From contig JBARPC010000005.1 in NCBI GenBank assembly GCA_049642725.1, forward strand, positions 1-47,507: a DNA stretch of 47,507 bases, written 5' to 3'. Shown here piece after piece: positions 14,919 through 44,348 of this stretch. The DNA is from Minisyncoccales bacterium (GTDB taxonomy: Bacteria; Patescibacteriota; Minisyncoccia; Minisyncoccales; JAGMDC01). Under the pieces are notes generated by a model, which saw nothing but the letters and a program-made list of their open reading frames with translations, was not told the origin of the DNA and did not search any database. Position numbers and translations under genes: made by a program. How positions within the stretch are numbered: position 1 is the stretch's first letter; each line of letters starts with the position of its first letter.

Positions 14919-15298
14919 GGTTTTTTGTCGAACGAAGCAAGCCGGAGAGCTGTTTTTACTAAAGCCATCTGTTCCGGCGTTAGTTCTTCGTCCGAGTGTG
15001 TTAAGCGACCGCTAATTTCAACTTTATTTCCATATTTTGGGTGATGATGACGGAGCCATAATTGAAGAGCCTGAAAGTTCCGGTCGCGAATCAGGGAAAT
15101 TAGCTGAGATTCGCTCATATCTGTTATAAATGCTTCGCCTTCGGTAATAGCCGCATCAGCCTCCCTGGCAAATTTCTTACTTTCTCGCCAGCGGTAATAT
15201 GTGGTTCGTCCAACGCCAACCTTTTTGCAGGCAACCTGCACAATTGGCATTTCCTTTAGCACTACAATCATTGAATCTTTTATTTTATCTTTTTTCAT
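14915..15298 (-). CDS. Terminase small-subunit-like HTH protein
   Basis: HTH VACKKVGVGRTTYYRWRE. Sits directly upstream of and overlaps terL. Confidence 0.45.
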   Translation of the reverse strand: MKKDKIKDSMIVVLKEMPIVQVACKKVGVGRTTYYRWRESKKFAREADAAITEGEAFITDMSESQLISLIRDRNFQALQLWLRHHHPKYGNKVEISGRLTHSDEELTPEQMALVKTALRLASFDKKP

Positions 15299-17651: not shown

Positions 17652-20600
17652 ATGAAAAAATTTTTTGAAAATTACGTTCAATCAATTTCTTCTAAATTTT
17701 CCCACAAAGAAACTAGCGAAATGGGATACAGAGGAGATTTTGAGATTCTAATTAAAGAGATTTTTAATTCAATTAAGGTTTATAGAATAGGACACGATGA
17801 CAAAGCTGAAGAAGGGAATAAGCCCGATTTTGTCATATTTAAAAATGATGTGCCCATTTTATATATAGAAGCAAAAGACATTGGAATCTCTTTGGATAAG
17901 GTTGAAAAATCGGAACAAATGGCAAGGTATTATGGTTACACGAATTTAGTTCTTACTGATTATGTAGAATTTCGTTTTTATAGAAATGGACTTCGTTACG
18001 AAGAACCAATAAAAATAGCAAATTATAATATTAAAAATCGGACGATTTCGCCTATTCCAGAAAATTACGAACATTTGGCAAAATCGCTAATAAACTTTAC
18101 TCAATCATTCAAAGAGCCAATAAAATCAGGAGAGCATCTTGCTAAAATTATGGGAGGCAGGGGGCAGAGAATTAGGGATAATGTACGCCAATTCTTCGCC
18201 GTTGAAACAGATAAAAATGCAGGGATTTTTCAGGTTTATAAGGCAATACAAGATCTCCTTGTCCACGATCTCACACAAGATTCTTTCTCGAATATGTACG
18301 CGCAAACTCTCGTCTATGGCCTTTTTGTCGCGCGCTATTATGATGAAACACCAGAAACATTCAGTCGCCAGGAAGCACGAGATCTTATCCCTGCTTCTAA
18401 TCCCTTTCTCGGACATTTTTTTGACCATATTGCTGGACGTAATTTCGAGAAAAGGCTTGCCTATATCGTTGACGAACTTTGCGAAGTCTTTTCCCATGCG
18501 AATGTAAAAGAATTAATGAGCCAGTATTTTAAAAAAGATTTATTTGGCGAAGTTTATAAAGGGCTTGATCCTGTAATACATTTTTATGAAGATTTTTTGA
18601 AAGAATACGATTCTGAATTACGAAGAAAAATGGGCGCTTATTATACACCATTGCCTGTTGTGCATTTTATTGTTCGCGCGGTAGACGAATTGCTTAAAAA
18701 AGATTTTGGATTAGCCAGAGGCCTTGCAGACACTGTAAAAAACAATGACGGTACTCATCGTGTCCAAATTCTTGATCCGGCTGTAGGCACCGGTACATTT
18801 TTAAGCTCTGTTATTGACGCTATTCATACCAACCAATTGGAACGAGGGCAAAAAGGAGGATGGGTGAGTTATGTTCATCACGATTTGCTTCCTCGAATTT
18901 ATGGTTTTGAATTAATGATGGCTCCTTATACCATTGCTCACCTTAAAATAAGCATGAAATTGCAAGAAACTGGGTTCAAGTATTTTAATGAAACGCGAGA
19001 GGGAAAAACACGACTTAAAGTTTATCTGACGAATTCTCTTGAGGGCTCTCAACCTCAGAAGGATTTATTTGCTTTTGATTTCGGAGCGGCTATCGCCGAC
19101 GAAGCTAAGGAGGCAACGAAAATTAAAAACGAGAAGCCGATTATGGTTGTGCTTGGTAATCCGCCATATTCTGTTAGCTCATCAAACAAAGGCGAATGGA
19201 TACAAAATTTAATATCAGATTATAAAAAAAACTTGGGCGAAAGAAAAATCAATCTTGATGATGACTATATAAAATTCATTCGTTTCGCAGAACATTTTAT
19301 AGAGAAAAATAAAAGTGGAATAGTAGCCATGATTACCAATAATTCTTTTATTGATGGCATTACGCATCGCCAGATGAGGAAACACTTATTGGAAACATTC
19401 GATGAGATTTATATTCTTGACCTTCATGGAAACTCCAAGAAAAAAGAGAAAGCACTAGACGGAAGCAAGGATGAAAACGTATTTGATATTCAGCAGGGAG
19501 TGGCGATTTCTATATTTATACGTAGGGTTGGCGAAAAAAAAGGACTCGGAAAAGTTTATTATTCCGAAATTTATGGCATAAGAGAATATAAATTTAAAGC
19601 CCTCGACGAAAGTAATTTGAAAACCATAAAATGGAATAATCTTGGATATTCCGAACCTTATTATTTCTTTGTTCCGAAAGATTTTATGGGAAAACAAGAA
19701 TATGAGAAAGGTTTTTCTATAATTGAATTGTTTCACGAATACAATTCTGGAATACAAACAAAAAGAGATCATACGACAATTTCTTTTACAAAAGAAAGGT
19801 TAAAAAAAGTTATTTCTGATTTTCAAAAATTATCTGAACAAGAGATTAGGGTGAATTATAATCTACCAGAAGATGGGCGTGATTGGAAAATAAAATTAGC
19901 AAAAGAAGATTTATTAAGAGATTACAGAATTACTGGTATTTTGTATAGACCATTCGATAATCGATTTACTGTATATACAGGAAAATCAAAAGGTTTTATT
20001 GCATATCCAAGGCAGAAAATTAATAAACATATTATTGAAAAAAATAATTTAGTTTTGGTCACTTGCAGAAATCAAATCTTTAACACAATAGCATTGGTGA
20101 CTAAAAAAATATCTGATTTGCGCACGTATTCAAATCCAGGATCTTTAGGGACGGATTACGTCTTTCCCCTTTATTTATATTTAGATGATGGTTCGTATAT
20201 ACCAAACCTGAAAAGGGAAATAGTTAATGAAACAGAGAAAATTGTTGGTAAAGTTTCTCCAGAAGATCTTTTTGATTATATTTATGCCGTTTTATACTCT
20301 CCAAATTATCGAGAGAAATATAAAGAGTTTCTAAAAATTGATTTTCCATATATTCCTTACCCAAAAGATAAAGTGAGTTTCAAAAAGTTTGTTGCGCTTG
20401 GCGCTAAGTTGCGTTCATTCCATCTTCTTGAGTCGCCAAAAGTAAACCAATTTATTACTACTTATCCTATTACCGGATCCAATGTTATAGAGAAAATAGT
20501 TTACAGAAATGGCAAGGTATTTATTAATGCCGAACAATATTTCGGTAATGTTCCTAAGATAGCTTGGAATTTTTATATTGGTGGTTATCAACCAACTCAA

Positions 20601-20729
20601 AAATGGCTCAAAGATCGAAAAGGTAGAATTCTTATCAGTACTGACATAGATCATTACCAAAAAATCATCATCGCCCTAATCGAAACTGACAGAATTATGA
20701 AAGAAATTGATAAGATTATTAAATTTTAA
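17652..20729 (+). CDS. Type IIG restriction-modification enzyme (fused endonuclease and N6-adenine methyltransferase)
   Basis: 1025 aa. Motif I ILDPAVGTGTFL and motif IV VVLGNPPYSVSS (NPPY) are present, with a long N-terminal nuclease-like region and a C-terminal target-recognition region. Confidence 0.7.
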   Translation: MKKFFENYVQSISSKFSHKETSEMGYRGDFEILIKEIFNSIKVYRIGHDDKAEEGNKPDFVIFKNDVPILYIEAKDIGISLDKVEKSEQMARYYGYTNLVLTDYVEFRFYRNGLRYEEPIKIANYNIKNRTISPIPENYEHLAKSLINFTQSFKEPIKSGEHLAKIMGGRGQRIRDNVRQFFAVETDKNAGIFQVYKAIQDLLVHDLTQDSFSNMYAQTLVYGLFVARYYDETPETFSRQEARDLIPASNPFLGHFFDHIAGRNFEKRLAYIVDELCEVFSHANVKELMSQYFKKDLFGEVYKGLDPVIHFYEDFLKEYDSELRRKMGAYYTPLPVVHFIVRAVDELLKKDFGLARGLADTVKNNDGTHRVQILDPAVGTGTFLSSVIDAIHTNQLERGQKGGWVSYVHHDLLPRIYGFELMMAPYTIAHLKISMKLQETGFKYFNETREGKTRLKVYLTNSLEGSQPQKDLFAFDFGAAIADEAKEATKIKNEKPIMVVLGNPPYSVSSSNKGEWIQNLISDYKKNLGERKINLDDDYIKFIRFAEHFIEKNKSGIVAMITNNSFIDGITHRQMRKHLLETFDEIYILDLHGNSKKKEKALDGSKDENVFDIQQGVAISIFIRRVGEKKGLGKVYYSEIYGIREYKFKALDESNLKTIKWNNLGYSEPYYFFVPKDFMGKQEYEKGFSIIELFHEYNSGIQTKRDHTTISFTKERLKKVISDFQKLSEQEIRVNYNLPEDGRDWKIKLAKEDLLRDYRITGILYRPFDNRFTVYTGKSKGFIAYPRQKINKHIIEKNNLVLVTCRNQIFNTIALVTKKISDLRTYSNPGSLGTDYVFPLYLYLDDGSYIPNLKREIVNETEKIVGKVSPEDLFDYIYAVLYSPNYREKYKEFLKIDFPYIPYPKDKVSFKKFVALGAKLRSFHLLESPKVNQFITTYPITGSNVIEKIVYRNGKVFINAEQYFGNVPKIAWNFYIGGYQPTQKWLKDRKGRILISTDIDHYQKIIIALIETDRIMKEIDKIIKF

Positions 20730-25133: not shown

Positions 25134-25538
25134 ATGAAACAATATCTTATAGATGCATCAGTTCTACACGGTTGGTCTAATACTAAAGATAAACACCATT
25201 CAGTATGTAAGAAATTTTTCCAAGATCGCTTAGAAGATGAATTGTTTTTTCCTATTCATTGCCTTTTTGAAGTAAAAGCTTCCAGGGAAAGAAGATTAAA
25301 GGGAGGTGATTTTTCTGGACTACCCGGCAAATTTGTTTTAAGAAATAAGAAATTCATTAACGTTGACCGTAAATTTTTTGATCATTGTCAGCAAAAAGAG
25401 CTTTTCGATGCATTTAAAAAACTAAAAGGTTCTGATTTAATTTATGCATGTATGGCCAAAATAGGCGGTTTCATTCTTGTTACCTGCGATAACGATTTCG
25501 ACGCTTATAGTAGAAAAATAAATTTATTGAAATTATGA
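25134..25538 (+). CDS. PIN-domain protein (VapC-like nuclease)
   Basis: YLIDASVL, FEVKAS and GFILVTCDNDFD match the conserved acidic PIN residues. Confidence 0.55.
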   Translation: MKQYLIDASVLHGWSNTKDKHHSVCKKFFQDRLEDELFFPIHCLFEVKASRERRLKGGDFSGLPGKFVLRNKKFINVDRKFFDHCQQKELFDAFKKLKGSDLIYACMAKIGGFILVTCDNDFDAYSRKINLLKL

Positions 25539-27281: not shown

Positions 27282-28598
27282 ATGGAGAAATTATCAAAAA
27301 AACTTATTGTTTATCTCGACCAGAATTTTATAAGCGAAATGGCAAAGGTTGAAACAAATAAAAAAGTAAGTTCTCAATTTAAAGATATATATGAATTACT
27401 TCATGAGGGTTTTATTGATGAAAAAATTGTAGTTCCATCTTCTTGGTTTCATGAGATTGAAACAAGCTTGTCTACTATTCTTAAAAAGAAAATTATGGAA
27501 TATCAAGGATATTTAGGTCAAATAGATATGAATTTCCCTACAGATATACGAAGATTTCAGTTAGTAAAAGCAGTTAAAGAATTTCTTGGAGAAAAAGAGG
27601 CTGAACCTACAAGTTACGGTTTTGTTTTTCGTAATAATCCAGATCAGAGAACAAGAATGTTTGATATCAAAATAGATACTCAACTAGAACGTTTTAATTA
27701 TAGAAGTGAACGAGTATCAACCGCAAAAGATTTAGATAAATTAAGAAAAAGTATTGAGGAAAATAAAATTAACTATAAAGAACAATTACAAAAAGAGCTA
27801 AATGCCCAAATAGATTTTTTAAAGCAGCAAGAGAATTACACCTTTCGTTGGTTATTCAAAAATAATCCAGAAAAAGTAGATATGTTTTTAAAATCTAATT
27901 ATTTTAAAGAAATGCCAACAGTAAGTATTTATTCGCAGATGTGGTCAAAGCTACTTACTAGCTATAAAAATAGACAAATAAAGAGTAGCGACATGACCGA
28001 TATTGATATTATATCTACCTACCTTCCATATATAGAAGTATTAGCAACAGATTTATTTATGGCAAATTTAGTTAAGGAATTAGAGCTTGATAAGATATAT
28101 CAAACAACTATATTTTCCTCAAAAAATGAGAGTCTTAAAGATTTTAAAATCTATCTTAAAAATTATCTAATTAATACCAAAGCTATAAATATTCCAAAAT
28201 CTTCTATTTTTGTTTTATCAGATGACATTATTAAAGAACATTCATTTGAGTTATTCCATGATTTGGGCATGATGTCTGGAAATATATCGCATAGTAAAGA
28301 ATGGGTAGATATTTATGGTTTTGATGATGGTAATATGCCCGAATATCAACTAAAAAAGGGACCGAAACGTCCCTGGCCATTTTATGGACTTCAGGATGTA
28401 CACATAATCAAAATTAAACCAAAAATTCCTTTGTTAGAAATAATAAAAATCTGCAAAGAAAAATGTCGTTCTGAAAAGTTTATTCTCCTTAATTCATATA
28501 GAAAATTACCAAGTAATTTCGTAGAAACTTTAATTAAATACTGTGATTCTAAAAAAGATAGAATTTTGAACTACAAAATTTATAGTAGAAAAGTGTAA
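27282..28598 (+). CDS. Hypothetical protein
   Basis: 438-aa ORF with no recognisable domain. Confidence 0.45.
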   Translation: MEKLSKKLIVYLDQNFISEMAKVETNKKVSSQFKDIYELLHEGFIDEKIVVPSSWFHEIETSLSTILKKKIMEYQGYLGQIDMNFPTDIRRFQLVKAVKEFLGEKEAEPTSYGFVFRNNPDQRTRMFDIKIDTQLERFNYRSERVSTAKDLDKLRKSIEENKINYKEQLQKELNAQIDFLKQQENYTFRWLFKNNPEKVDMFLKSNYFKEMPTVSIYSQMWSKLLTSYKNRQIKSSDMTDIDIISTYLPYIEVLATDLFMANLVKELELDKIYQTTIFSSKNESLKDFKIYLKNYLINTKAINIPKSSIFVLSDDIIKEHSFELFHDLGMMSGNISHSKEWVDIYGFDDGNMPEYQLKKGPKRPWPFYGLQDVHIIKIKPKIPLLEIIKICKEKCRSEKFILLNSYRKLPSNFVETLIKYCDSKKDRILNYKIYSRKV

Positions 28599-28602
28599 AA
28601 TG

Positions 28603-28857
28603 AGACAATAGAATATATCCTTAAGTAGTGTCTCACTCTCATTTCTCGAACAGAACACCTAAACTGAGACACAGGGGTGAGACATTCCCGAAAGCTTCAA
28701 AACGGGACACTCAACTGTTCCATTGGAACACCCCCTTTTCGTGTTCCGTTTGTTCCGTTTTAGCTTCAAAATGCCCGACCGAGACGGGTCAATGGAACAC
28801 GCCGAAAATAGCCTGAATTACCCTTAAAATCTCGGTTCTGGACCGAGGTTGTCTGCC
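28603..28857 (+). ncRNA. Structured repeat element with tRNA-like 3' end (candidate tRNA-like RNA or MITE)
   Basis: 5' agacaat (28603-28609) can pair with 3' gttgtct (28847-28853), followed by g+CCA. T-arm-like ctcgg-ttctgga-ccgag. An internal palindrome gttccaTtggaac and a gttccgttt x2 direct repeat are present. A partial homologue lies at 46698-46876. Confidence 0.4.
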
Positions 28858-28886
28858 ATCACATGCTAAGTCAAGTGACTGAGACG
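28858..28886 (+). repeat. 29-nt trailer tcacatgctaagtcaagtgactgagacgc, copy 2
   Basis: Same motif as 4263-4291 and again placed immediately after a ...tgcca end. Confidence 0.7.
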
Positions 28887-28917
28887 CCTTAATTCGAGTC
28901 ACAAGGGGGAATAGGAT

Positions 28918-28941
28918 GGTGCTCGGTTCGAGCGACCGAGA
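28918..28941 (+). repeat. 24-bp direct repeat gtgctcggttcgagcgaccgagac, right copy
   Basis: Matches 10718-10741. It is followed by a T-run (ggtttattttt), so it may also act as a terminator. Confidence 0.7.
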
Positions 28942-29076
28942 CAGGTTTATTTTTACAATTCTAGTCTAAATTGCGGTCGCTGATCGAAAATAAAAACGGC
29001 TGAGTTTAGCCGTTTTTAAGACTCAGAAGAATAGTTTTTATTTTTTAATTCAAGATTATATATTTATACCTTAGCG

Positions 29077-29164
29077 AATCAAGGTTCTGCCGAGCGTCAG
29101 CGAGGCAGGTTCTTAATTACAAAGTAATCAAGGTTCTGCTGAGCGTCAGCGAGGCAGGTTCTTA
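29077..29164. repeat. Tandem direct repeat (2 x 39 bp, 49-bp period) duplicating the 3' end of the XRE gene
   Basis: aatcaaggttctgcYgagcgtcagcgaggcaggttctta appears twice. The reverse complement encodes ...KNLPR*, the C-terminus of gene 29146..29529. Confidence 0.8.
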
Positions 29165-29529
29165 TATTTTTTATCAACGATTTCTTTAGCCATTTCTATG
29201 TCGCGGATAGCTTGAGGCGAAAGATGATATTTTGCCCGGAGATATTGCGGAAGATCAGGAAGCTCATACTCGTCACTATCAACTAAGCCGGCTTCTTTCA
29301 AGAGAGCTCCTACTGGTATGTTATAAAATTTTGAAAGTTTCAATAGGGTATGAATATTGATAGTGAAAAAAGAATTGCCGTTTTCAATTTTGAAAAGATA
29401 ACTGGGAGCTATTCTAGATTTTTCAGCTACTTCCCTGATTGATAGTTCAGATTCTTTTCTCAATTGTTTAAGATAGGTTCCTAATTTTTTCATTTCGTAA
29501 GGAATTGTTTTTTTCAAAGTTTTTAGCAT
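29146..29529 (-). CDS. XRE-family HTH transcriptional regulator
   Basis: LRKESELSIREVAEKSRIAPSYLFKIENG matches an HTH_3 domain. Confidence 0.7.
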   Translation of the reverse strand: MLKTLKKTIPYEMKKLGTYLKQLRKESELSIREVAEKSRIAPSYLFKIENGNSFFTINIHTLLKLSKFYNIPVGALLKEAGLVDSDEYELPDLPQYLRAKYHLSPQAIRDIEMAKEIVDKKYKNLPR

Positions 29530-29861
29530 AGCACCTGTGGATAACTTTAATTATTTATTTTAGTTTACTAAATCAAAAAATTCTGTCAAGAGACATTTTG
29601 TTATTTAAAATAAACAAATAAGAAAGTAGGCTCTTAGTTTTAACTTATTTTTTGATAATTAAATTAAAAATGCCCTCCCTCCCCTGAGAGTATGTTCTCT
29701 TAAAGAAATAATTTGTAGATTTCAATAAATAACTCAAAATTGGCTTGACAGCATTGATTGACTTCTTAATAAAGAGTATAATGAAACAAGTTATTAAAAA
29801 GAAGATTTACTAAAGAAGATTTACTATGAAAATAATCAAAGAAGTAACTAAAATTTCAGCG

Positions 29862-29895
<34 letters not shown>

Positions 29896-30118
29896 CGAAT
29901 TTGCCGCGGGATTTAGCTCTAAGAGTTTCGTATTTTGTATTAAAAACAAATCTCTGTTGCTTGCCCCGTATAATCCTGAAAGGATTTGTTCGGGGCTAAT
30001 TTAGTGACGGAGGTTTTTGTTTTTAAAAAACGTTTCAGAAATTTAGAATAACTTAATCCTTAAGAATAAAATAAAGCTCTTAATTGTGGTTGGATACAAT
30101 TAGGAGTTTTTATTTGTT

Positions 30119-30187
30119 TAGATATCTGAATGGGGCGTGGGAGGGCTAGAAAATCCAACTACTTCCCACGCCCGATCCAGATATCTA
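30119..30187. promoter_or_regulatory. Imperfect 25-bp inverted repeat (candidate operator or RNA hairpin) upstream of gvpA
   Basis: tagatatctgaatggggcgtgggagg ...20 nt... cttcccacgcccgatccagatatcta. Confidence 0.4.
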
Positions 30188-30319
30188 AATTTAGCTATTA
30201 TAGGATAGCATAATTGAGGAAATTTGTCAGCCCTAAATAATAAACCCGCTAAAATTTAAGCGGGCAAGGGTCGATTAGGGCAAGTGTAAAATAAATCTTA
30301 AATTCAAATTTAAACAAAT

Positions 30320-30526
30320 ATGGCTGTAGAAAAAGCAATAGGTAGCTCTAGTTTAGTGGAGGTAGTAGACCGAATTCTTGACAAGGGTGTTGTTATTGAC
30401 GCTTGGGTAAGAGTTTCATTAGTTGGTATTGAATTGCTGGCAATTGAAGCCAGAGTGGTAGTTGCTTCGGTTGAAACTTGGTTGAAATATGCAGAAGCTG
30501 TCGGTCTTACTGCCACCGCTGCCTAA
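30320..30526 (+). CDS. gvpA: Gas vesicle structural protein GvpA
   Basis: 68 aa, [53 protein letters not shown], the hallmark GvpA sequence. Confidence 0.9.
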
Positions 30527-30698
30527 GAGCTAAGCTAAATTGTTTAAAGCATCCTTTATGTTCGGAGGAGTACCCGAATTCCTTCTCCAAATCCTTAAAA
30601 AGGGTTAAGAGTAGAAAGTATGCCTTAAACAATATTTTGAATATCAAAATTTGTTCTTGAAAAAAAAGAGTAAATTCTGGTATTTAAATTTAAGAGTT

Positions 30699-31241
30699 AT
30701 GTCTAATAATAATTTCAAAATTGCTCAAGACATCGTCGCTTCATACGAAGCTCGGATAAAGGTAATTCAGGCAACAGCTGAAGACACCCAAAAATTGCTT
30801 GAAGAATTTAGGGAAAAGAGAGAAAAGATGAGCCAGGAATTAAAAGGAGCTTTATCCCAACATGAATCTTTGAGAAAGAAAGATTTTGACAAAATGATGG
30901 AAGATATTTTAATTGCTCAAAAAACTCGAGAAGAAAATGTAAAACAAATGCTAGTTGATTTTCAAGATGAGGAAATGAAAGTTGTTGAGGGTTTAAGAGA
31001 AATGCTCAAAAAAGGAGAAAAATTAAGGCTCAAAGATTTTAAGGGTACTTTGGTTAAAATTAGAGAAGAACAAGAAATTCGAGAAAAAAAAACCCCCACT
31101 CGTATTGGCGAAGAATTAATTCGGATGAAATCAGAAGTTTGTGAGATGCTTGAAAATTTTAAGAGAGAGCGGGAAAAAGTGGCTTCGGAATGGAAAGAGA
31201 TGACGACCTCAGTGAATCAAAAACGAAATTTAAATAAATAA
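30699..31241 (+). CDS. Coiled-coil gas-vesicle-associated protein (paralogue of 31708..32226; alternative start at 30651)
   Basis: Charged heptad-rich sequence sharing RKKDFDKMMEDI / LKDFKGTLVKI motifs with the downstream paralogue. Confidence 0.5.
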   Translation: MSNNNFKIAQDIVASYEARIKVIQATAEDTQKLLEEFREKREKMSQELKGALSQHESLRKKDFDKMMEDILIAQKTREENVKQMLVDFQDEEMKVVEGLREMLKKGEKLRLKDFKGTLVKIREEQEIREKKTPTRIGEELIRMKSEVCEMLENFKREREKVASEWKEMTTSVNQKRNLNK

Positions 31242-31295
31242 TTAACCCGCCAAAATTTTGCATCGCAAAACTTAGGCGGGTAAAGGTCAAAAACT

Positions 31296-31601
31296 ATGGC
31301 AAAAAAAGCATCAATTAAATACAAGATGATCACCTGTGCTTTCTGTAAAGGAAAAGGAATAGATCCTTTTGGAATTCCTTCAAAGTTGTCTAATTGCCAA
31401 GTGTGTTGGGGTAAAGGCAAAGTAGCCATTGCTGATATTCCTCATGAGACCTGCGGAGCTTGCGAGGGTTCAGGAATTTTTGAACATCATCGATTGCCTT
31501 GTTCGGTCTGCAAGGGGAAAGGAGTGGTTCCGAAAGACAGGAGGCAGGGATCGAAAGGAATGAATCCGGGCACGGGATTACCGGAAATCGGGAACTACTA
31601 A
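31296..31601 (+). CDS. DnaJ-type zinc-finger (CR-domain) protein
   Basis: Four CxxCxGxG repeats: CAFCKGKG, CQVCWGKG, CGACEGSG and CSVCKGKG. Confidence 0.6.
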   Translation: MAKKASIKYKMITCAFCKGKGIDPFGIPSKLSNCQVCWGKGKVAIADIPHETCGACEGSGIFEHHRLPCSVCKGKGVVPKDRRQGSKGMNPGTGLPEIGNY

Positions 31602-31707
31602 AAAAGTCGAAACTTAACATAAAATTAATTAAATTTTTGATTTTTAATTAATCTAATGTCTCATTAATTTTAGTCATTAGAATTAATTATTAGTCATTGT
31701 GAATAAT

Positions 31708-32226
31708 ATGGCTTACGCACAAGAAATGAAAAATTTAGCGGCCGAAATCAAAACCTCTCATCAAGACCGAACTCAATATATAGCGGACGTTAAAGATGCT
31801 ACTCATGAATTGATTGCTAAATTTCAAGGAGAATTGAAAGAAATGGCTAGAGATCTGAAAGATTTTCTGGCAAAAAGTGAAGATACAAGAAAGAAAGATT
31901 TTGATGGAATGATGAAAGGGATTCAAGTAAAGATTAAGGAAATTCAAGGCGATGTAAAAGATTTCTTAGCCGAAAGTGAAGAAAAAAGAATGGCCGATTT
32001 TAAAGTCACAATGAAAGATATTACTGATAGAGTTGATGATATAAAGAAAACCGCAAGGGGAATGCTTGGCAACTATAAAACAGAGAGAAAAGAGGCAGCT
32101 GGTTATTGGGGAAGATTGAAAGGCAAAGAGGCTGCAGTAGTCAAAGAAGCGGTAGTTGAAGAAGCGGTAGCTGAAGAAGCGGAAGAAGAAGCGCCAAAAA
32201 GAAAAAAAGGAAGAAGGAAGAAATAA
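31708..32226 (+). CDS. Coiled-coil gas-vesicle-associated protein with basic C-terminal tail (alternative GTG start at 31699)
   Basis: RKKDFDGMMKGI and VKDFLAESEEKRMADFK motifs are paralogous to 30699..31241. The sequence ends in an EEAEEEAPKRKKGRRKK tail. Confidence 0.5.
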   Translation: MAYAQEMKNLAAEIKTSHQDRTQYIADVKDATHELIAKFQGELKEMARDLKDFLAKSEDTRKKDFDGMMKGIQVKIKEIQGDVKDFLAESEEKRMADFKVTMKDITDRVDDIKKTARGMLGNYKTERKEAAGYWGRLKGKEAAVVKEAVVEEAVAEEAEEEAPKRKKGRRKK

Positions 32227-32306
32227 TTCGTATCCGAAGCCGCAAATTCGTAAATTCGTACAACGGTTTCGGTAAAAAGGTCGAATTTAATTTATATTCT
32301 AGTAAA

Positions 32307-33245
32307 TTGAGAGATATGCCTTATTTATCATCAGAAGAAGAACAAGCTATTATTGAGCCAAAACCAATGGCTGATTTTGTTGAGACACCTTACATTAAGC
32401 GATTGACTCGCCGAGCTTTGAATTATCTCAAAGTTGGAATTCCAGTCCATTTTAGGGGTCCGACTGGAACCGGTAAAACCACTTTAGCTTTACATGTAGC
32501 AAGCAAAATTGGAAGACCGGCAGTCCTTTTGCATGGAGACGACGAATATAAAACTTCTGATTTAGTGGGAGGCGAACACGGTTATCGTTACCGCTATTTA
32601 AAAGACAATTTTATTTCCAGCGTTCTTAAGGTAGAGCAAGATATGTATAAGCGCTGGACGGACAACCGCTTAACATTAGCCTGTAAAAATGGTTTCACCA
32701 TGATTTATGATGAATTTACTCGTTCAAAACCAGAAGCCAATAATATTTTACTCTCCATTTTACAAGAAAAAGTGATGGACTTGCCGGCCCAAAGACAGGG
32801 AGAGGAAGCTCATTATTTGCAAGTTCATCCCAATTTCTGCGCTGTTTTTACCTCTAATCCCGAAGAGTACGCTGGCACTCATAAAGCCCAAGATGCTTTG
32901 AGAGATAGAATGGTTACTATGGACCTGGATTATTTTGACCGAAAAACCGAAGTAGCAATAACTCAAACAAAATCTGGCCTTTCTGAAGAAGATTCCGGGA
33001 AAATAGTTAATGTGGTCAGAGGAATGAGAACGCACAATCCCTGCGAATTTCCTCCTACTGTAAGAAGCTGCATTACTTTAGCTAAGGCTGTAGTAATTAA
33101 TAGAGGAAAGGTTTCGGTTGCCGATTCCGTTTTTCGAGAATTGGCTCAAGATGTATTAGTTTCTCAAACTACTCGAAGCCCTTGGTCACCAAAACGAAAA
33201 GAGATAAAAGAATTGGTTGAAGGATTAATTAATAAATATTGCTAA
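32307..33245 (+). CDS. gvpN: Gas vesicle AAA+ ATPase GvpN (MoxR/CbbQ-like)
   Basis: Walker A GPTGTGKTTLALHVA, Walker B MIYDEFTRSKPE, and the position after gvpA. Confidence 0.8.
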   Translation: MRDMPYLSSEEEQAIIEPKPMADFVETPYIKRLTRRALNYLKVGIPVHFRGPTGTGKTTLALHVASKIGRPAVLLHGDDEYKTSDLVGGEHGYRYRYLKDNFISSVLKVEQDMYKRWTDNRLTLACKNGFTMIYDEFTRSKPEANNILLSILQEKVMDLPAQRQGEEAHYLQVHPNFCAVFTSNPEEYAGTHKAQDALRDRMVTMDLDYFDRKTEVAITQTKSGLSEEDSGKIVNVVRGMRTHNPCEFPPTVRSCITLAKAVVINRGKVSVADSVFRELAQDVLVSQTTRSPWSPKRKEIKELVEGLINKYC

Positions 33246-33248
33246 AAT

Positions 33249-33593
33249 ATGAAAACTTCAATAAAAACACTTCAAGATGTTAGTGGCTTCCACGATCTTA
33301 GAACATATACTGGAGCAGTTAGGAAAAGCGGCAAGCCAGCGCTTCCCACCACGAATATCCTAGATCTTTATATGCGAAGGAATGAAAGAGATAGGTTGGT
33401 CAAGGAATTAAAACTGGTGAAAAGAAGAAGGGTGCAGTTGCGCGGAAGATTAAAAGACGTAGAGAAGGAGATGACGAAACTTCTCGTTAAGGCTACCAAA
33501 ACAGCAGTAGACATAAGAGGAGAAACGATAAGGGGCGGCTTAAGTTCAATTGAGGAATCGAAAAAGAAAGGAAAAATGGTATTAGGATATTAA
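33249..33593 (+). CDS. Basic, coiled hypothetical protein
   Basis: 114-aa ORF. Confidence 0.4.
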   Translation: MKTSIKTLQDVSGFHDLRTYTGAVRKSGKPALPTTNILDLYMRRNERDRLVKELKLVKRRRVQLRGRLKDVEKEMTKLLVKATKTAVDIRGETIRGGLSSIEESKKKGKMVLGY

Positions 33594-33628
33594 ATTCTAA
33601 TAATTTGTGTTTAAGTTAGTGAATATTT

Positions 33629-33943
33629 ATGGGCATTATGACTACGAACGAGCTAAGAGTTTTATCTATTATTTGGGATTGGGGAGGAGAAGCATCGGTT
33701 GATATTATTGCCAGAGAAGTTGGTATTAGCATTGATTATGCAAGGCTTTTATGTGAAAGTTTGGGAAGAGAAGGCTGTATAGATTTTTTGGGCTCCAAAC
33801 TCTGCAAAATAAAAAGTAAAGGAAAGGTAATGGTAGCAAGTAAAAAGGGCCAGAATCCCCAAAAAATTGTTATCCCAGAAAGGCCGAGCAGATTCGGCTT
33901 AGGCAAAGATAAAAGAGGAAGAATTATTTTAAATTATGGTTAA
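33629..33943 (+). CDS. Winged-helix DNA-binding protein (putative regulator; paralogue of 37263..37709)
   Basis: LRVLSIIWDWGGEASVDIIAREVGISIDYARLLCESLGREGCIDF. Confidence 0.45.
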   Translation: MGIMTTNELRVLSIIWDWGGEASVDIIAREVGISIDYARLLCESLGREGCIDFLGSKLCKIKSKGKVMVASKKGQNPQKIVIPERPSRFGLGKDKRGRIILNYG

Positions 33944-34544
33944 AAAATATAAATTTAAAAAAACTGAAAAGGGAAAAACCGATCAGGCTAGAGAAGAATT
34001 GAAAAATCTGGAAGATTTGCCTTTGGTCGGTGGACTTCTCAAAGGATTGGGAAAATTCGTTGATCTGGCAGAAAGAGTAGAAGAAGCCGGAGGAGAGATT
34101 AAAAAGAAAGGAGAGATAAAAAGCGATGAGGGAAAGGTAAGGGGTATTTATGGATTTTCGATAAAAAGCGGAATCGGGGAGAGGCCGAAATTTCAAACTT
34201 TTGGCAATATAAAACCAATTAAAAAAGAAGCTAAAGCAAAACCGGAATTTAAAATCACGGAGACCAGAGAACCGATGGTGGATGTTTTTAATGAGAAAGA
34301 CCATGTTTTGATTGTAGCTGAGCTTCCTGGAGTAAGCGAAGACAGTATCAACTTGGATCTAAAAGGAGATATTTTGATCTTAGAAGCTGGAGATGAAAAA
34401 AGAAAGTATTCAAAAGAAATTTTGCTTCCCCGTTCGACTTCGCCTGGACGAAGTCCTGGCGGGCGGGCAGCGAAAGTTGATTTTGACGGGAGAGAAGAAA
34501 ACTTTAAGAATGGAGTACTTGAAGTAAAGATGAGAAAAATATGA
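33936..34544 (+). CDS. Hsp20/alpha-crystallin small heat-shock protein (GvpH-like position)
   Basis: [28 protein letters not shown]...ILLP...[12 protein letters not shown] matches an alpha-crystallin domain. Confidence 0.7.
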
Positions 34545-36697
34545 CAGCTATTTTCAAAATAGCAGAAGCAGAATCAAAAGATGTAGGGAGGGCTATTGTC
34601 CGAATTGACCCAAAAGATCTTTCCAAAGTTAAAGCTGAAATTGGAGATATAGTGGAAGTTAAAAGTGCCAAGGAAAAAGTTAAGAAAAAAACAGTAGCTA
34701 AATTGATGCCGGCTTTCGAAGAAATGCGCGGCAAGGGAATCTTACAAATGGATGGAATTTTAAGGGATAATATTAAGGTTGGTTTAAACGAGAAGATAAA
34801 GATTAAAAAGATAGAGACGAACCTCGCTTCAACTATAGTTTTAAAACCTTTAACTTCGGAAAGCTCTTTAAAAGAGACCGATTCAGAATACTTAGCTCAA
34901 ATATTGGATGGGGCACCAGTTATTACAGAGAATAAAATCCGGGCAACCTTTTTCGGATCAAAATTTCAAGACTTTTTAGTGGAAGATACTGATCCCGACG
35001 GGGCAGTTTTGATAAATTCCGAAACAACAATCAAAATTAAGGGGGCTGCCAAAGCAAAAAGAGGAGTAGGGATTACTTACGAGGATATTGGCGGCCTTAA
35101 AAAAGAAATGGGGAAAATTAGAGAAATGATTGAGCTTCCCTTGAAATATCCTGAGGTTTTTGAAAGATTAGGAATTGATGCTCCAAAGGGAGTATTGCTT
35201 CATGGTCCTCCGGGCTGCGGAAAAACTTTAATTGCCAGAGCTATTGCCAATGAAACTGACGCTTATTTTACCCATATTTCGGGACCGGAAATAATGGGTA
35301 AGTTTTATGGGGAATCCGAAGGAAGATTAAGAGAAGTATTTGAAACAGCCGAATCTAATGCTCCAGCTATTTTAGCAATAGATGAAATTGATGCTATTGC
35401 CCCTAAACGTGAAGATATGGGGGGAGAAAAACAGGTAGAAAGAAGAGTAGTGGCTCAACTTTTGGCTTTAATGGACGGATTAGAATCTCGAGGAGATTTA
35501 ATTGTAATCGGAATTACCAATATTCCTAATACTTTAGATCCTGCCTTAAGAAGACCGGGAAGATTTGATCGAGAAATTTCAATTCCTATTCCTGATAAAA
35601 ACGGCAGAAAAGAAATATTAGAAATTCATACCCGGGGAATGCCTCTAACTAAGAACTTTGATTTAGAGAAACTGGCTGAGATTACTCACGGTTTTGTAGG
35701 AGCAGATTTGGAGGCCCTAGCCAGAGAAGCGGCGATGTCGGCCCTGAGAGAGATTATGCCAGAGATTGAATTTGAAAAAGAATATATTCCTTATAAAAAA
35801 CTTTTGGGCATTGAAGTAACCATGGATCATTTCCGAGAGGCACTGAAAGAAGTTGAACCCTCGGCTTTAAGAGAAGTATTTACTGAGATTCCTAATGTCA
35901 GGTGGGAAGATGTCGGAGGGTTAGAGGACATAAAACAGACCCTCAAAGAAGCTATTGAATGGCCATTAAAATACGGAAAGCTCTTTGATCATTCAAAAAC
36001 CAGTCCCCCTAAAGGAATATTGCTTTCAGGGCCTCCGGGTACCGGAAAAACTTTAATAGCTAAAGCAGTAGCTTCTGAATGCGGAGTCAATTTTATTTCA
36101 GTTAAGGGCCCCCAACTTTTATCCCGTTGGGTTGGAGAAAGCGAAAAGGGAGTAAGAGAAGTTTTCAAAAAAGCAAAGCAATCCTCTCCCTGTATTGTCT
36201 TTTTTGATGAAATCGACAGTTTGGTTCCGGCTCGAAACCAATCTTCAGATTCCCATGTAACAGAACGGGTGGTTAGCCAATTTCTTACCGAACTTGACGG
36301 CATAGAAGAGCTTAAAGGAGTAGTAATTCTAGGAGCAACTAATCGATTGAATTTAATTGATTCTGCTTTACTGAGAGCCGGAAGATTCGATTTTCTCTTG
36401 GAAGTTCCAAAACCCGATGAAAAAACTAGGCTGAAAATATTCAAAATTCATACTCAAGGCAAGCCCTTGGCTCAAGATGTAGATTTTAAAATCCTAGGTA
36501 GGGAAACAGAGGGGCTTACCGGAGCTGATATTGAAACCATTTGTAAAAAAGCATCCATAATGGCAATTAGAGAGTTTGTGAATTCAAGCAACCCCAAAGG
36601 AAAGCTTTCGGCTTCCTACGTGGCAGGCCAAAACGAGAAAAATTTTAAAATTAAATTTAAATATTTTAAAGAAGCATTAAAGAATTTAAAGACATAA
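34541..36697 (+). CDS. Cdc48/VCP-like double-ring AAA+ ATPase
   Basis: N-domain plus D1 ([22 protein letters not shown]) and D2 ([22 protein letters not shown]), with second-region-of-homology motifs. Confidence 0.85.
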
Positions 36698-36698
36698 T

Positions 36699-37211
36699 AT
36701 GCCCAATATAGAAGATCTAAAGCAAGCACAACAGCAATTAAACCCCCACACCAAACGAGGACAAATCGCTGAAAGCGATTCAGTTGGAGAAGCCAGTCCT
36801 CGTTCTGGTGTGGGGGTAAAGGAAAGCGAGCAAGACCCAAAAGACACTAAAAATTTTCCCAGAAGAACTTCTCCTCCCTTCACTGTTTCCAGAGCTGTTA
36901 GCGAAGTGCCTGACGTTTCTCTAAACAAGAAGGAAATTCAAGGACAGGAGGAGAAGAGTTGGGTTTCTCCCCAAGAATGGCAAAAAGAAATCTTAAATGA
37001 AAAGCAAAAACTTGAAAAGGCGTCTAAGGAAATAGAAAATTGGCAGGCAAAAATTCAAGAACGGCTTGGGATAATAAAAAAATTAGAATCTCAAAGCGAA
37101 AAAATAGATGAAGCGGTAGGGGAACTTCAGCAGAAAATAGTTTTAGTAAAAAAAGAAAATAATACTTTCTTGTATCAAATAAGAACCTCTCGCTTCGCTC
37201 GAGAACCTTGA
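36699..37211 (+). CDS. Coiled-coil hypothetical protein
   Basis: 170-aa ORF with a coiled C-terminal half. Confidence 0.45.
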   Translation: MPNIEDLKQAQQQLNPHTKRGQIAESDSVGEASPRSGVGVKESEQDPKDTKNFPRRTSPPFTVSRAVSEVPDVSLNKKEIQGQEEKSWVSPQEWQKEILNEKQKLEKASKEIENWQAKIQERLGIIKKLESQSEKIDEAVGELQQKIVLVKKENNTFLYQIRTSRFAREP

Positions 37212-37262
37212 TTCCTGCCGGCACTAATGTATAAACATATAATTTTGAATTAAAAAACAATA

Positions 37263-37709
37263 TTGAACATGGAAACCGAGTTGGAAATTTTAAAGAAGAT
37301 TCTGAAAAATAAAAAATCTGCTTACGTTCGATTGATTTCTGTTCAAACTGGCCTTGGCGCAGATTATGTTCGATATATTTGTAAAAATTTACAAAGAAAA
37401 AATTTAATAAAAAAGCAGGGGAGAGATGAATATTCAATAAACCACGCAGGAGAAAAGGAATTGGAAAAAAGGGGATTAATTAAAACAAAAGGGATTTTCC
37501 AAAGTTCACAAACTGGTTGTCCAGCTTTTGCAAAATTAGCTCTGTGGAAACCAAAGGAAATTAAAGTTGGAACAACTCCTGTTGTTAGAGCTAAAATTGA
37601 AAAAAAATTGAATTTTCCTGAATTAAAAGAAGAAAAGTTAACCATTGGTAAAAAGGTCGAAAAAGCAGTATCATTTCTTAAAAAATTAAAAGGAAAGGAG
37701 GGATTCTAA
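37263..37709 (+). CDS. Winged-helix DNA-binding protein (putative regulator)
   Basis: LEILKKILKNKKSAYVRLISVQTGLGADYVRYICKNLQRKNLIKK is paralogous to 33629..33943. Confidence 0.45.
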   Translation: MNMETELEILKKILKNKKSAYVRLISVQTGLGADYVRYICKNLQRKNLIKKQGRDEYSINHAGEKELEKRGLIKTKGIFQSSQTGCPAFAKLALWKPKEIKVGTTPVVRAKIEKKLNFPELKEEKLTIGKKVEKAVSFLKKLKGKEGF

Positions 37710-37717
37710 AAAGGATT

Positions 37718-38761
37718 ATGAAAAAAGGAAAGAAGAAAATTAAACAATCGCAAGCTATGCCATCTCAAATTGGAAGAGGTTTAGATGTAGGGACTACTTT
37801 CATCTATTCAGCCCAGAAAATGGGTTCGGAAGTGAAATTTAATACTGAGCGAAACGCGTTCTTTGATATTGAGCGAAATGATTTCGTTGAAAACATATTA
37901 AAAAAATCCAATGTAAAATGCGCCCTAAAGGGAGATAAACTCTGTGTGATAGGAGAAAATGCGCTAAAATTTGCCAATGTTTTTGGCAAAGAAACGAGAC
38001 GTTCTTTAAAAAGCGGAGTAATTAGTCCCCAAGAAGAGGATGCTTTACCGATTCTAAATCTAATTATTGAAAATACTTTAGGTCCCCATCGCCATAAGGG
38101 CGAAACTATCTTTTATTCAGTTCCGGGCGCTCCGGTAGACGCTGATTTCAATGTAATTTACCATGAACAGATTTTAAGAAGAATGCTTCAGAATTTGGGA
38201 TATGAGCCAAAATCTATCAATGAGGGATTAGCAGTGATTTATTCTGAATTGGCTAATAATGATTTTACAGGGATGGGAATTTCTTTCGGCGGAGGAATGG
38301 CTAATGTTTGCCTGGCAGTAATGTCTATTCCAGTGTTTTCTTTCAGTATAGCCAAAGCAGGTGATTGGATAGATGCAGAAGTTGCGCGAGTAAGTAATGA
38401 AACTGGAAGCAAAATTACCGCAATTAAAGAATCCAGATTAGACCTTACGAAACCGGAAAATAGCTTAACTAAAATAGAGCAAGCTCTTTCTATTTATTAC
38501 AATCATTTAATCGAATATGTATTGAGTTGTGTTAAAAATGAAATTGAAAAGCAAAACAAAATGCCTTTATTAGAAAGCCCTATTTCTATTGTTATTTCTG
38601 GAGGAACAGCCAAGCCCAAAGGATTTTTAGAAAGATTTAAGACAGCCCTAAATAAAACTAATCTCCCCTTAAAAATCGGAGAAGTGAAACTGGCTTCCCA
38701 TCCTCTCCACACTGTAGCCAAAGGCGCGCTAATCGCAGCAATTGCTGATAAGGGAAAATGA
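37718..38761 (+). CDS. Actin-like ATPase (ASKHA fold; ParM/MamK/Hsp70-like)
   Basis: Phosphate-1 GLDVGTTFIY, connect/phosphate-2 GISFGGGMANVCLA, and adenosine VISGGTAK motifs. Confidence 0.55.
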   Translation: MKKGKKKIKQSQAMPSQIGRGLDVGTTFIYSAQKMGSEVKFNTERNAFFDIERNDFVENILKKSNVKCALKGDKLCVIGENALKFANVFGKETRRSLKSGVISPQEEDALPILNLIIENTLGPHRHKGETIFYSVPGAPVDADFNVIYHEQILRRMLQNLGYEPKSINEGLAVIYSELANNDFTGMGISFGGGMANVCLAVMSIPVFSFSIAKAGDWIDAEVARVSNETGSKITAIKESRLDLTKPENSLTKIEQALSIYYNHLIEYVLSCVKNEIEKQNKMPLLESPISIVISGGTAKPKGFLERFKTALNKTNLPLKIGEVKLASHPLHTVAKGALIAAIADKGK

Positions 38762-38765
38762 CATT

Positions 38766-39803
38766 ATGACAGAAGAAGGAAAATATATCTACTCCATAAT
38801 TAAAGAGAACAATGACCGAAGGTTTGATTGTATTGGGATAAATAATCGAGAGGTAAACATTGTTCACTACAAAGACATAGCAGCAGTGGTCTCAAGCAGT
38901 CCAATTATTAACTTTGATCGTTTAAACAAGAAAGAACTAACAAACCATGTTGCTACCCACCAAAGAGTAAATGAAGCAGTGATGAAAGAGTATGATGTTG
39001 TGCCTATGGCATTCGGAATTATTGCTCCCAGCGTCAATGAAGTGATGCGTATTTTAGAAAAAGCCTATCTTCAATTCAAAACAGCCTTTAAAAATATAAC
39101 CGGTAAAGCAGAATTTGCGGTTCAAGTATGGTGGAATCCAAAAAAACTTCTTGAAGAATTAGCTAACACCAATCCAGAAATCCGGAAATTAAAACAAACG
39201 GTGGTTTTGAAAGGAAGTATTTTAGGAATGCCAATGAAGTTGAAATTAGGAAAGTTAATACAAAAAGAAGCAGAAATTCAAAGACAAACTTTTATTAATG
39301 ATATTCATAAATCCCTAAGAAACTTATCCCTTGCTTCCACATCGAATAAATTAATTGATGATGAGATGATAGCCAACCTCTCTTTCTTAATAGAAAAAGC
39401 TAAAGAACTCGAGCTTGATAGAAAGATGCAAGAACTCGGAAAAAAATATGAGGGGAAATTAAAATTTAAATATATTGGGCCGATGCCTCCTTACAGTTTT
39501 GTAAGAATAAATTTAAACTTAGGCAATTTTGAAGTAGTTAATAGGGCAAGAAAACTTTTAGGATTAGAAGAAATAGCCACTCTTGATGAAATTAAAAAGG
39601 CTTATTATGTCCTTGCCCATCAATATCATCCGGATAAACATCAGGGTGACCCCCAAAAAGAAGAACAAATGAAAAAAATAGCCCAAGCCCATAGTATTTT
39701 GGAGAATTACTGCCAGAGTTATGATGATTTTGAAGGAAAAACCGAAGACCAAAAATATTCTTTTAAAGAAGGAGATGTTAAGGCCGCAATATTGATTCGT
39801 TAA
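38766..39803 (+). CDS. GvpF/L-family protein with a C-terminal J-domain
   Basis: N-terminal KYIYSIIKEN...VNIVHYKDIAAVVSS matches GvpF/L. C-terminal LDEIKKAYYVLAHQYHPDKHQGDPQKEEQMKKIAQAHSIL carries the HPD motif. Confidence 0.7.
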   Translation: MTEEGKYIYSIIKENNDRRFDCIGINNREVNIVHYKDIAAVVSSSPIINFDRLNKKELTNHVATHQRVNEAVMKEYDVVPMAFGIIAPSVNEVMRILEKAYLQFKTAFKNITGKAEFAVQVWWNPKKLLEELANTNPEIRKLKQTVVLKGSILGMPMKLKLGKLIQKEAEIQRQTFINDIHKSLRNLSLASTSNKLIDDEMIANLSFLIEKAKELELDRKMQELGKKYEGKLKFKYIGPMPPYSFVRINLNLGNFEVVNRARKLLGLEEIATLDEIKKAYYVLAHQYHPDKHQGDPQKEEQMKKIAQAHSILENYCQSYDDFEGKTEDQKYSFKEGDVKAAILIR

Positions 39804-39877
39804 TAACTCCCTTTTAATGAGGGGGGCATTAAAGGTCGAAGCATAAAATAAAAACCAAAATTAAAAAACAAAAAACT

Positions 39878-40216
39878 ATGTCAGAAATTATTACTTTATT
39901 CCAAACTCTGTATATTCAAGTTATTACGCTAATGATACTGATTGATATCCTTTTGGGAATTACTGCCGCGGTTGTCAAAAAAGATTTTCTTTTTGCGAAG
40001 TTAGCTGATTTTATGAAAGGCCCGGTAATAGCCTATATTTTAGGTTTTGCTGTTTTAGGAATGGTGGCTCCAGTATTGCCAATGATAGGCACTATTGCCT
40101 TGGGACCATTAGTTCTTAAGTTTGCCTTTGTTTTGATTGTCTTGACTTTATTGGCTTCCATTTTTAGGAATTTAAAGAAACTGGGATTACCGTTGCCAGG
40201 AATTCTGGAAAAATAA
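39878..40216 (+). CDS. Small multi-TM membrane protein
   Basis: 112 aa with three predicted TM helices. Confidence 0.45.
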   Translation: MSEIITLFQTLYIQVITLMILIDILLGITAAVVKKDFLFAKLADFMKGPVIAYILGFAVLGMVAPVLPMIGTIALGPLVLKFAFVLIVLTLLASIFRNLKKLGLPLPGILEK

Positions 40217-40221
40217 GTATT

Positions 40222-40256
40222 GGACGTGTGGCGTCCGAATTGGACGTCGCACGTCC
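40222..40256. promoter_or_regulatory. Two tandem 15-bp palindromes (GGACGTGTGGCGTCC and GGACGTCGCACGTCC)
   Basis: Located directly upstream of the ATG at 40265. Confidence 0.4.
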
Positions 40257-40264
40257 ATAAGATT

Positions 40265-42975: not shown

Positions 42976-42979
42976 TTTT

Positions 42980-43249: not shown

Positions 43250-43260
43250 CAAAAATTATT

Positions 43261-44344: not shown

Positions 44345-44348
44345 AGAT

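Follow-up and report, generated by a model that had tools for sequence, protein, structure and literature searches.

The tRNA-like element at 28603–28886 in a contig of a Minisyncoccales bacterium is probably the distal junction (attR or a junction between two elements) of an integrative island at the 3′ end of tRNA-Trp. The window analysed here is one entire contig of 47.5 kb (47,507 nucleotides) from a metagenome-assembled genome (MAG) of the Minisyncoccales, members of the Candidate Phyla Radiation (CPR; Patescibacteria), bacteria with tiny genomes and few characterized mobile elements. The initial annotation had offered two readings of the element: an unusual structured RNA resembling tRNA or transfer-messenger RNA (tmRNA), and an attachment site used by an element with a tRNA 3′ end as its target. 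The latter is supported by an intact tRNA-Trp gene and a 35-nt repeat on either side of 24.6 kb of phage- and defence-type genes, and by the recurrence in many CPR genomes of the order tRNA, core, cargo, module and core, in which the core is a box of 25–27 bp and the module a conserved right-end sequence of ~96 nt. The tRNA-like look of the element is most likely mimicry at the island end and not a new tRNA-like RNA. The locus points to a widespread family (Saccharibacteria, Nomurabacteria, Kaiserbacteria, Adlerbacteria, Paceibacteria and others); its islands are directed at the tRNA-Gln 3′ end (at tRNA-Trp in the window), stack in tandem, bear defence systems and phage modules, perhaps also an entire gas-vesicle cluster, and offer a concrete route of horizontal gene flow in CPR bacteria. 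Two unannotated conserved noncoding elements are gained, a core-led small RNA and the right-end module, together with a very well conserved site of 25–27 bp that is a possible recombinase target.

Within the window, the direct repeat including the preceding CTGCCA comprises 35 nt, 33 of which are identical between 4257–4291 and 28853–28887, far above chance expectation. The near-identity of the 29-nt trailers noticed initially is confirmed (27 of 29 positions versus 4263–4291), with the distal copy lying at 28859–28887 and not at 28858–28886. The T-arm-like hairpin, discriminator g and CCA described for the element are all present at 28831–28858, the g being 28855 and the cca 28856–28858. The G+C content between the repeats is 32%, versus 36% in the flanks. 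The genes of the inferred island, termed E1, encode membrane and Zn-ribbon proteins, a sie-like protein, the LOOT RNA, a large serine recombinase, TerL, a TerS-like protein, a ParB-methylase, a Type ISP restriction-modification enzyme, a PIN-domain protein, a PIF1-type helicase and a protein of 438 amino acids; no similarity was found in the phage database. Housekeeping genes, including khpA and trmD, lie to the left of tRNA-Trp, and a convergent helix-turn-helix (HTH) regulator followed by a complete gas-vesicle cluster lies to the right of core copy 2. An intact tRNA gene, a repeat containing its 3′ end and mobile genes including a recombinase between the two are thus all in place, as in an island at a tRNA gene (tDNA island).

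The core is not confined to this contig. Exact matches to the 23-nt pattern ATGCTAAGTCARGTGACTGAGAC were found in 16 species-representative CPR genomes and 66 metagenome contigs (82 loci) from many CPR lineages, among them Saccharibacteria, Nomurabacteria, Kaiserbacteria, Adlerbacteria, Staskawiczbacteria, Paceibacterota and Minisyncoccales; no exact core was found in viral contigs. Loci from other genomes, metagenomes and viral contigs that bear a core, a module or a recombinase are designated L0xx in the following. tRNA-Gln is present in almost every core locus and the core lies almost always just 3′ of it, in many loci starting a few nucleotides (mostly seven, as judged by eye) past the discriminator base. 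As DNA, the core (25–27 nt) is dyad-symmetric around a central dinucleotide, CTaAGTCA-GG-TGACTgAG; folded as RNA, it gives a GNRA-capped hairpin, AUGC-[UCAG-GUGA-CUGA]-GCAU. In 21 distinct loci the core is followed by a conserved stretch of ~60 nt and a terminator. The core and the ~60-nt unit together have a consensus fold of −30 kcal/mol with compensatory changes at 13 of 26 pairs, and a second hairpin, CNGN-UGAGN-NCNG, covaries; the alignments thus point to a well-supported RNA structure, which matches no Rfam family. This core-to-terminator unit of ~115 nt is seen just 3′ of tRNA-Gln in L012, L015, L022, L029, L031, L038, L045 and others, and the window holds only its core part, in both copies. 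Given the position of the core RNA between tRNA-Gln and the stop codon of the recombinase gene, the element itself probably encodes this RNA, and integration would lead to its transcription together with the tRNA.

The candidate element itself would consist of two parts: the right-end module with a lineage-specific upstream extension, and the dyad core that also stands behind the tRNA at the proximal junction. About 115 nt ending in the core are common to ten loci, with the consensus CCCGACCGAGACG.GTCA.TGG.ACAC..AAAA..CCCCTTAAAA..GGTTCTAGACCGAGGATGCCAGCCA, then 4 nt, then the core, and an nhmmer search, with the ~96 nt that precede the core as its profile, retrieved ~27 distinct module instances across distant CPR lineages. 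The blocks of the module follow one another in the order GACCGAGACG, TGGAACAC, AAAA, CCCTTAAAA, GGTTCTGGACCGAGG and CTGCCA. All modules end in ...GGTTC.AGACCGAGG....C(A/T)GC(C/T)A, and in their last 25–30 nt they mimic tRNA-Gln (its T-arm, the 3′ strand of its acceptor and its GCCA); the final bases are CAGCCA at tRNA-Gln sites and CTGCCA and CTGCAA in the tRNA-Trp array, as in the local tRNA. The right half of the core recurs in the first block, GACYGAGACGC. The window contains just five copies of GACYGAGAC, always on the plus strand and always inside these elements, and the repetition of this motif in direct orientation makes it look like reiterated DNA sites; six of the 31 plus-strand GAGAC pentamers of the window fall in 28603–28950. 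The upstream extension is found, besides in the candidate, only in L028, L018b, L082 and module copy 2 of the window.

The cargo is variable and inserted after a tRNA; its open reading frames (ORFs) run in the same orientation as the module, which occupies their distal, 3′ end. The layout of tRNA(-Gln) and core, cargo (0.85 to >7 kb), and module and core is found in L030, L047, L018, L087 and L028, and the window matches it with tRNA-Trp and 24.6 kb of cargo. Three classes of sequence lie downstream of modules: the core (after 4 nt), a beta box of the pattern TTTGAACTCAAA..CCGTCGTGGACGG..TTAGAACTTTTT (after module copy 2 of the window and the modules of L074 and L035, directly after tRNA-Gln in L010) and a gamma box, ..CGGTTCGAGAGACCGAGACGC (after modules in L010 and L018b, with related forms directly after tRNA-Gln in L018 and L028). 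The left partners are tRNA-Gln, tRNA-Trp (in the window), tRNA-Glu (L052), modules and other pseudo-3′-end sequences. Left and right partners combine freely, with the breakpoint always just past the tRNA-like C(A/T)GC(C)A, which would place the exchange point between the last bases of the tRNA, C(A/T)GC, and the core centre. In L051 a small remnant is bounded on either side by a clean attL/attR repeat of 28 bp, CAGCAGTCTTATGCTAAGTCAGGTGACT, and in L027 30 nt of the tRNA-Gln end are duplicated. The 35-nt repeat of the window may be a duplicated attachment sequence or may represent the homologous left ends of two tandem units. Repeated sites are also seen within single loci: L064 and L071 have three cores 0.8–1.3 kb apart within ~2 kb, L018, L028 and L087 have two modules each, and the window has two cores and two modules. 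Downstream of tRNA-Gln, cores or modules delimit tiny units of 0.8–1.5 kb that have at most one gene, in an arrangement resembling a cassette array. A second, different pseudo-tRNA right-end family, CACTAGGG.G.C.GA...GTTCGA.TC...CAGCA, sits just upstream of the core, in the position of the module, in L034, L037, L042, L056, L073, L051 and L022; several element families therefore share the target and the core.

The candidate integrase is the large serine recombinase of E1, the closest solved structure to which is SPbeta SprA/YokA. Its orthologues (72–83% identical; 75% for L024) were found in 18 loci, always downstream of the core and convergent with it. In L048, L044, L085, L088, L025, L052 and L090 the recombinase stop codon lies ~40–100 nt from the core, typically right behind the terminator of the core RNA; L090, an IMG/VR contig with a 79% identical recombinase, shows in order tRNA-Gln, the core (two mismatches), the 60-nt RNA, the terminator and the recombinase stop codon. 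A 46% identical relative, in L098, also abuts tRNA-Gln, but with a different box. No tyrosine recombinase (Phage_integrase) domain was detected in any ORF of the window, and a crude motif screen for the HxxR...Y signature found none among 199 nonredundant ORFs within 4 kb of the cores. Because its orthologues are convergent with and near the core and no tyrosine recombinase signature was detected, the serine recombinase is most likely the catalyst, and the core, or the tRNA end together with the core, its presumed site. The recombinase domains, the orthologues adjoining the core in other loci and the dyad symmetry would together fit a serine-recombinase site.

A mechanism can be proposed from these arrangements. 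tRNA-Gln would be the usual target of the element family. In the excised unit, the module joined to the core would form attP, and attB would be the tRNA end and whatever follows it; upon integration, the tRNA would take the place of the module next to the core. The tRNA-Gln-like tail of the module would then act as a target-like left half-site for the recombinase. Since the module ends like a tRNA, later units could land either at the tRNA or at a module, giving tandem arrays in which many units lack a recombinase. Read in this way, the window would run from tRNA-Trp through E1 (core, recombinase, module) and a possible second unit, E2 (core, gamma dyad, terminator, HTH gene, gas-vesicle cluster, module copy 2), to the beta box from 46877 onward. 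A repeated junction site, tandem units and units without a recombinase are all present, as in a composite array of the staphylococcal cassette chromosome (SCC) type. A more speculative extension, which we hold only tentatively and regard as rather doubtful, is that the tRNA-Gln 3′ end in CPR bacteria serves as an integron-like capture platform run by the large serine recombinase. The module tail would be a decoy attB, and units would stack and be mobilizable in trans. Integration would put the core RNA behind the tRNA promoter, so that only integrated elements would produce the RNA, which could then signal or regulate the integrated state; the module with its paired extension would be a working part, as DNA and possibly as RNA, and more than a scar.

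The alternative of a tRNA or tmRNA gene found no support. ARAGORN detected only tRNA-Tyr, tRNA-Thr and tRNA-Trp in the window and nothing at 28603–28886, and Rfam returned only the same three tRNAs (48–69 bits) and the LOOT RNA. The candidate region gave no Rfam match, to tRNA, tmRNA or any other family, at the gathering threshold or at E ≤ 10, and a permissive scan of 28300–29200 yielded noise only. Both strands of the acceptor stem proposed at the outset are present, agacaat at 28603–28609 and gttgtct at 28848–28854, not at 28847–28853; their 7-bp pairing consists of six Watson–Crick pairs and one G·U. A pairing as good or better arose in 79 of 500 shuffles (16%) of the upstream sequence, and in homologous copies the best partner lies at nonhomologous positions and is no better than chance. 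The loop TTCTGGA (or TTCTAGA) does not match the T-loop consensus TTCRANY, and across 25 copies the T-arm keeps three invariant pairs with no compensatory change; the 3′ strand of the hairpin, GACCGAG, is conserved as sequence and the 5′ strand drifts without compensation. There is no G3·U70 pair as sought for a tmRNA (the third pair would be A-U), and two copies within 47 kb, with several per locus elsewhere, are unlike the single-copy tmRNA. The consensus fold of the 96-nt module over the 25 copies (RNAalifold) reaches only −0.8 kcal/mol, again with three invariant pairs and no compensatory changes. Alignment of the module to tRNAs with shuffle controls confined the similarity to the last 25–30 nt, the 5′ part being at chance level; it was seen with tRNA-Gln specifically (z up to 5.7) and not with the tRNAs for Trp, Thr, Tyr, Gly or Ile. 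The suggestion by eye of a D-loop and anticodon loop, which would have made the whole module a degenerate tRNA, was accordingly rejected.

Several observations weigh against an attachment junction served by the serine recombinase, and some of them would fit a structured noncoding RNA carried by the island on the plus strand, made up of extension, module and core hairpin, whose tRNA-like 3′ end is processed or acts as a tRNA surrogate. The candidate region folds better than every shuffle (z of −3.5 and −3.8), its G+C content is raised (47% for 28603–28950 versus 34% window-wide), and it is a special sequence, though of no recognizable RNA family. It is co-oriented with the upstream ORFs and followed by hairpins and terminators, and the adjoining core and ~60-nt unit is the covarying RNA structure described above. 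Within the extension, the tandem 9-mers pair with distinct complementary segments, and changes on the two sides go together; in copy 2, whose two 9-mers are not identical, a fitting complement exists for each. One 9-bp helix, paired to 98% across six long-form sequences, has two compensatory columns, and its five wobbles are all of the G·U type on the plus strand; this is modest evidence for pairing in a single strand (RNA or single-stranded DNA). The module is, moreover, longer and better conserved than the ~50-bp site that a serine integrase needs, and several modules, including copy 2 of the window, have no core. Further difficulties lie elsewhere: the recombinase of the window is 7.7 kb from the core and does not adjoin it, so E1 may be composite or rearranged; the central dinucleotide of the core is GG in copy 1 and AG in copy 2; and 28 bp (L051) to 35 bp (window) are common to both junctions, compared with a few bp for canonical phage serine integrases. 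This extent of identity would be nearer to Ccr- or TnpX-type behaviour, or could reflect homologous left ends of tandem units. The scans of genome and metagenome collections, which used the core pattern and the exact flanking proteins, found only further contigs from the same sample with the same arrangement, and no empty tRNA-Trp site or circular module–core junction. Against the structured RNA stand the failure to match any family even at the permissive threshold, the negligible consensus fold of the 25 modules, the T-stem 5′ strand that is not maintained, the unconserved, chance-level acceptor pairing, the blocks that repeat the right half of the core directly in the manner of DNA sites, and the small number of long-form sequences. 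We therefore consider such an RNA unlikely as the explanation of the element, though the extension may have some role as RNA or as a single strand.

A classical tyrosine-integrase tDNA island, in which the 35-bp repeat is the att core, the upstream 9-mers are arm-type sites for integrase and Xis, and the integrase has been lost or is too divergent, seems quite improbable. Long direct repeats with a tRNA 3′ end are the hallmark of such islands (Islander; PMC4383910), short motifs are reiterated in both orientations beside the core, and the duplication in L027 would suit this explanation. The only recurring recombinase, however, is of the serine type, neither the domain search of the window nor the crude motif screen of 199 ORFs around cores disclosed a tyrosine recombinase, and the 438-amino-acid ORF beside the site has no recombinase similarity and occurs elsewhere in unrelated contexts. 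A decayed tRNA duplicate, that is, a pseudo-tRNA with trailer arising by local duplication without any mobile element, would account for the T-arm-like hairpin, the G, the CCA and the shared trailer and is hardly credible otherwise: the tRNA-like part is restricted to the last 25–30 nt and looks like tRNA-Gln and not like the adjacent tRNA-Trp, distant CPR lineages have kept the same module, and the repeats enclose phage and defence genes together with a recombinase. Because of the guide-like match to the tRNA end, a homing guide of a CRISPR-associated transposon, a TnpB/IscB omega RNA and an IS110 bridge RNA were also considered and were rejected, no matching transposase or nuclease genes being present. 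A dif/Xer-type site was likewise dismissed; the core is tied to tRNA ends and does not resemble dif.

The integrative island at the tRNA-Trp 3′ end can be compared with several known systems. In SCC elements (SCCmec and pseudo-SCC; cf. PMC10581047), Ccr large serine recombinases insert at the 3′ end of rlmH; each junction carries a direct repeat of the integration site, and composite arrays include recombinase-less units and defence cargo. The present family shares with SCC the serine recombinase, the 3′ end of a housekeeping gene, the junction repeats, the tandem units without recombinase and the defence cargo. It differs in its target (a tRNA gene and not rlmH), its host phylum and its tRNA-mimicking module; the solved structure nearest to its recombinase is SPbeta SprA. 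The tycheposons of Prochlorococcus (Hackl et al.; 10.1101/2020.12.28.424599) are reportedly cargo elements at tRNA genes that pile up in tandem, with partial tRNA repeats distally and recombinase-less satellites. Going by that description, tRNA-gene integration, tandem stacking and recombinase-less units are common to both; the host clade is different, and no counterpart of either the conserved core hairpin or the right-end module is known from tycheposons. tDNA islands of the Islander/TIGER type are overwhelmingly driven by tyrosine integrases, have the repeat inside the tRNA and commonly form tandem arrays at one tDNA (PMC4383910; PMC12424338). Like them, the present island is marked by an intact tRNA on one side and by a repeat containing the tRNA 3′ end on the opposite side, and it encloses foreign genes, a site-specific recombinase among them; unlike them, it has a large serine recombinase, a repeat made of the last ~6 nt of the tRNA and a downstream box of 25–27 bp, and a conserved ~96-nt module at its end. 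In canonical phage serine integrases, attL and attR have only a few bases besides the crossover dinucleotide in common, and the length of an att site is 40–50 bp (PMC3556126; 10.1101/2025.05.02.651858). The domain architecture, the gene beside the site and the dyad around a central dinucleotide recall SPbeta SprA, A118 and phiC31; the 28–35 bp in common and the extra ~70 nt of conserved flank do not. The family is thus set apart from tDNA islands, SCC and tycheposons by combining a serine recombinase, a tRNA 3′-end target, a highly conserved core box that doubles as the 5′ hairpin of a small RNA, and a conserved right-end module. Literature searches found no description of such a family in CPR bacteria; the element is ordinary in kind, as an island junction, and in detail apparently a variant without known description.

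Table 1. Features of the 47.5 kb window
Feature	Position	Strand	Details and basis
Intact tRNA-Trp(CCA), proximal island anchor	4189–4262	+	ARAGORN; Rfam tRNA, 63.3 bits
Inferred island E1, ~24.6 kb	4263–28858		Pfam, PHROGs, GC
Direct-repeat copy 1	4257–4291	+	CTGCCA (tRNA end), 4-nt spacer, 25-nt core ATGCTAAGTCAGGTGACTGAGACGC (4267–4291)
LOOT RNA (RF03000)	11793–11914	−	Rfam
Large serine recombinase, candidate integrase	11950–13269	−	Resolvase, Recombinase and Zn-ribbon domains
ParB-fused DNA methylase	15295–16629	−	
Type ISP restriction-modification enzyme	17652–20729	+	
PIN-domain protein	25134–25538	+	
438-amino-acid ORF	27282–28598	+	
Long-form upstream extension	28597–28764	+	Repeated 9-mers TGTTCCGTT (twice) and GTGTCTCAC; complements GGAACAC and TGAGACA
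Conserved ~96-nt right-end module	28765–28858	+	nhmmer, 83 bits
T-arm-like hairpin	28831–28847	+	ctcgg (28831–28835), ttctgga, ccgag (28843–28847); read from the sequence
Direct-repeat copy 2	28853–28887	+	CTGCCA, 4-nt spacer, core (28863–28887; centre AG, not GG)
Possible recombinase-less unit E2	28859–46876		Core, HTH regulator, gas-vesicle cluster, module copy 2
Core-related dyad, gamma box type	28921–28942	+	gctcggttcgagcgaccgagac
Bidirectional terminator-like hairpin	28991–29018		Between the junction and the convergent HTH gene (29146–29529, minus strand)
Gas-vesicle cluster, complete	30651–45650		
Module copy 2, long form	46686–46876	+	32-nt hairpin insertion; ends GATGCCTGCAA, no core after it; nhmmer, 72 bits at 46795–46874
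Beta box, alternative right-hand junction partner	46877–46930	+	TTTGAACTCAAA...CGTGGACGTTAGAACTTTTT

The cargo deserves separate mention. With its Type ISP enzyme, ParB-methylase and PIN-domain protein, the content of E1 is defence-island-like. The 438-amino-acid ORF ends 4 nt before the element, and its product has no similarity in Pfam, PHROGs or the PDB. More than 190 full-length homologues (37–62% identical) exist in Acidobacteria, Zixibacteria, CPR bacteria and metagenomes, in neighbourhoods that vary (Mrr, an RHS toxin, IS1595) and that contain no similar downstream element. The varying neighbourhoods suggest that the gene is mobile and possibly defence-related, and the occurrence of the homologues in unrelated contexts without the module shows that the protein is not the partner of the element; a role as a hidden integrase or RNA partner was accordingly ruled out, there being no recombinase similarity either.

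The complete gas-vesicle cluster of this Minisyncoccales MAG is flanked by core copy 2 on one side and module copy 2 on the other and may for this reason be horizontally acquired cargo; judging from the layout, the stretch assigned to E2 is possibly a second unit. The cluster encodes GvpA/J, three GvpF/L proteins, GvpG, GvpH, GvpK, GvpO, an N-like AAA protein, a CDC48-like AAA protein, ArsA, Volactin and a DnaJ-fused GvpF. In the window, the LOOT RNA sits immediately 3′ of the gene for the serine recombinase; it was also found in L081 (12412–12538), L090 (3385–3512), L091 (1418–1532) and L092 (2016–2132), together with the same recombinase family. It was tried as a counterpart of the core and rejected, with no convincing similarity to it and a position relative to the recombinase that varies, in both distance and orientation, among these elements. 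Its recurrence with the same recombinase family suggests that LOOT may be a component of these phage-like CPR elements.

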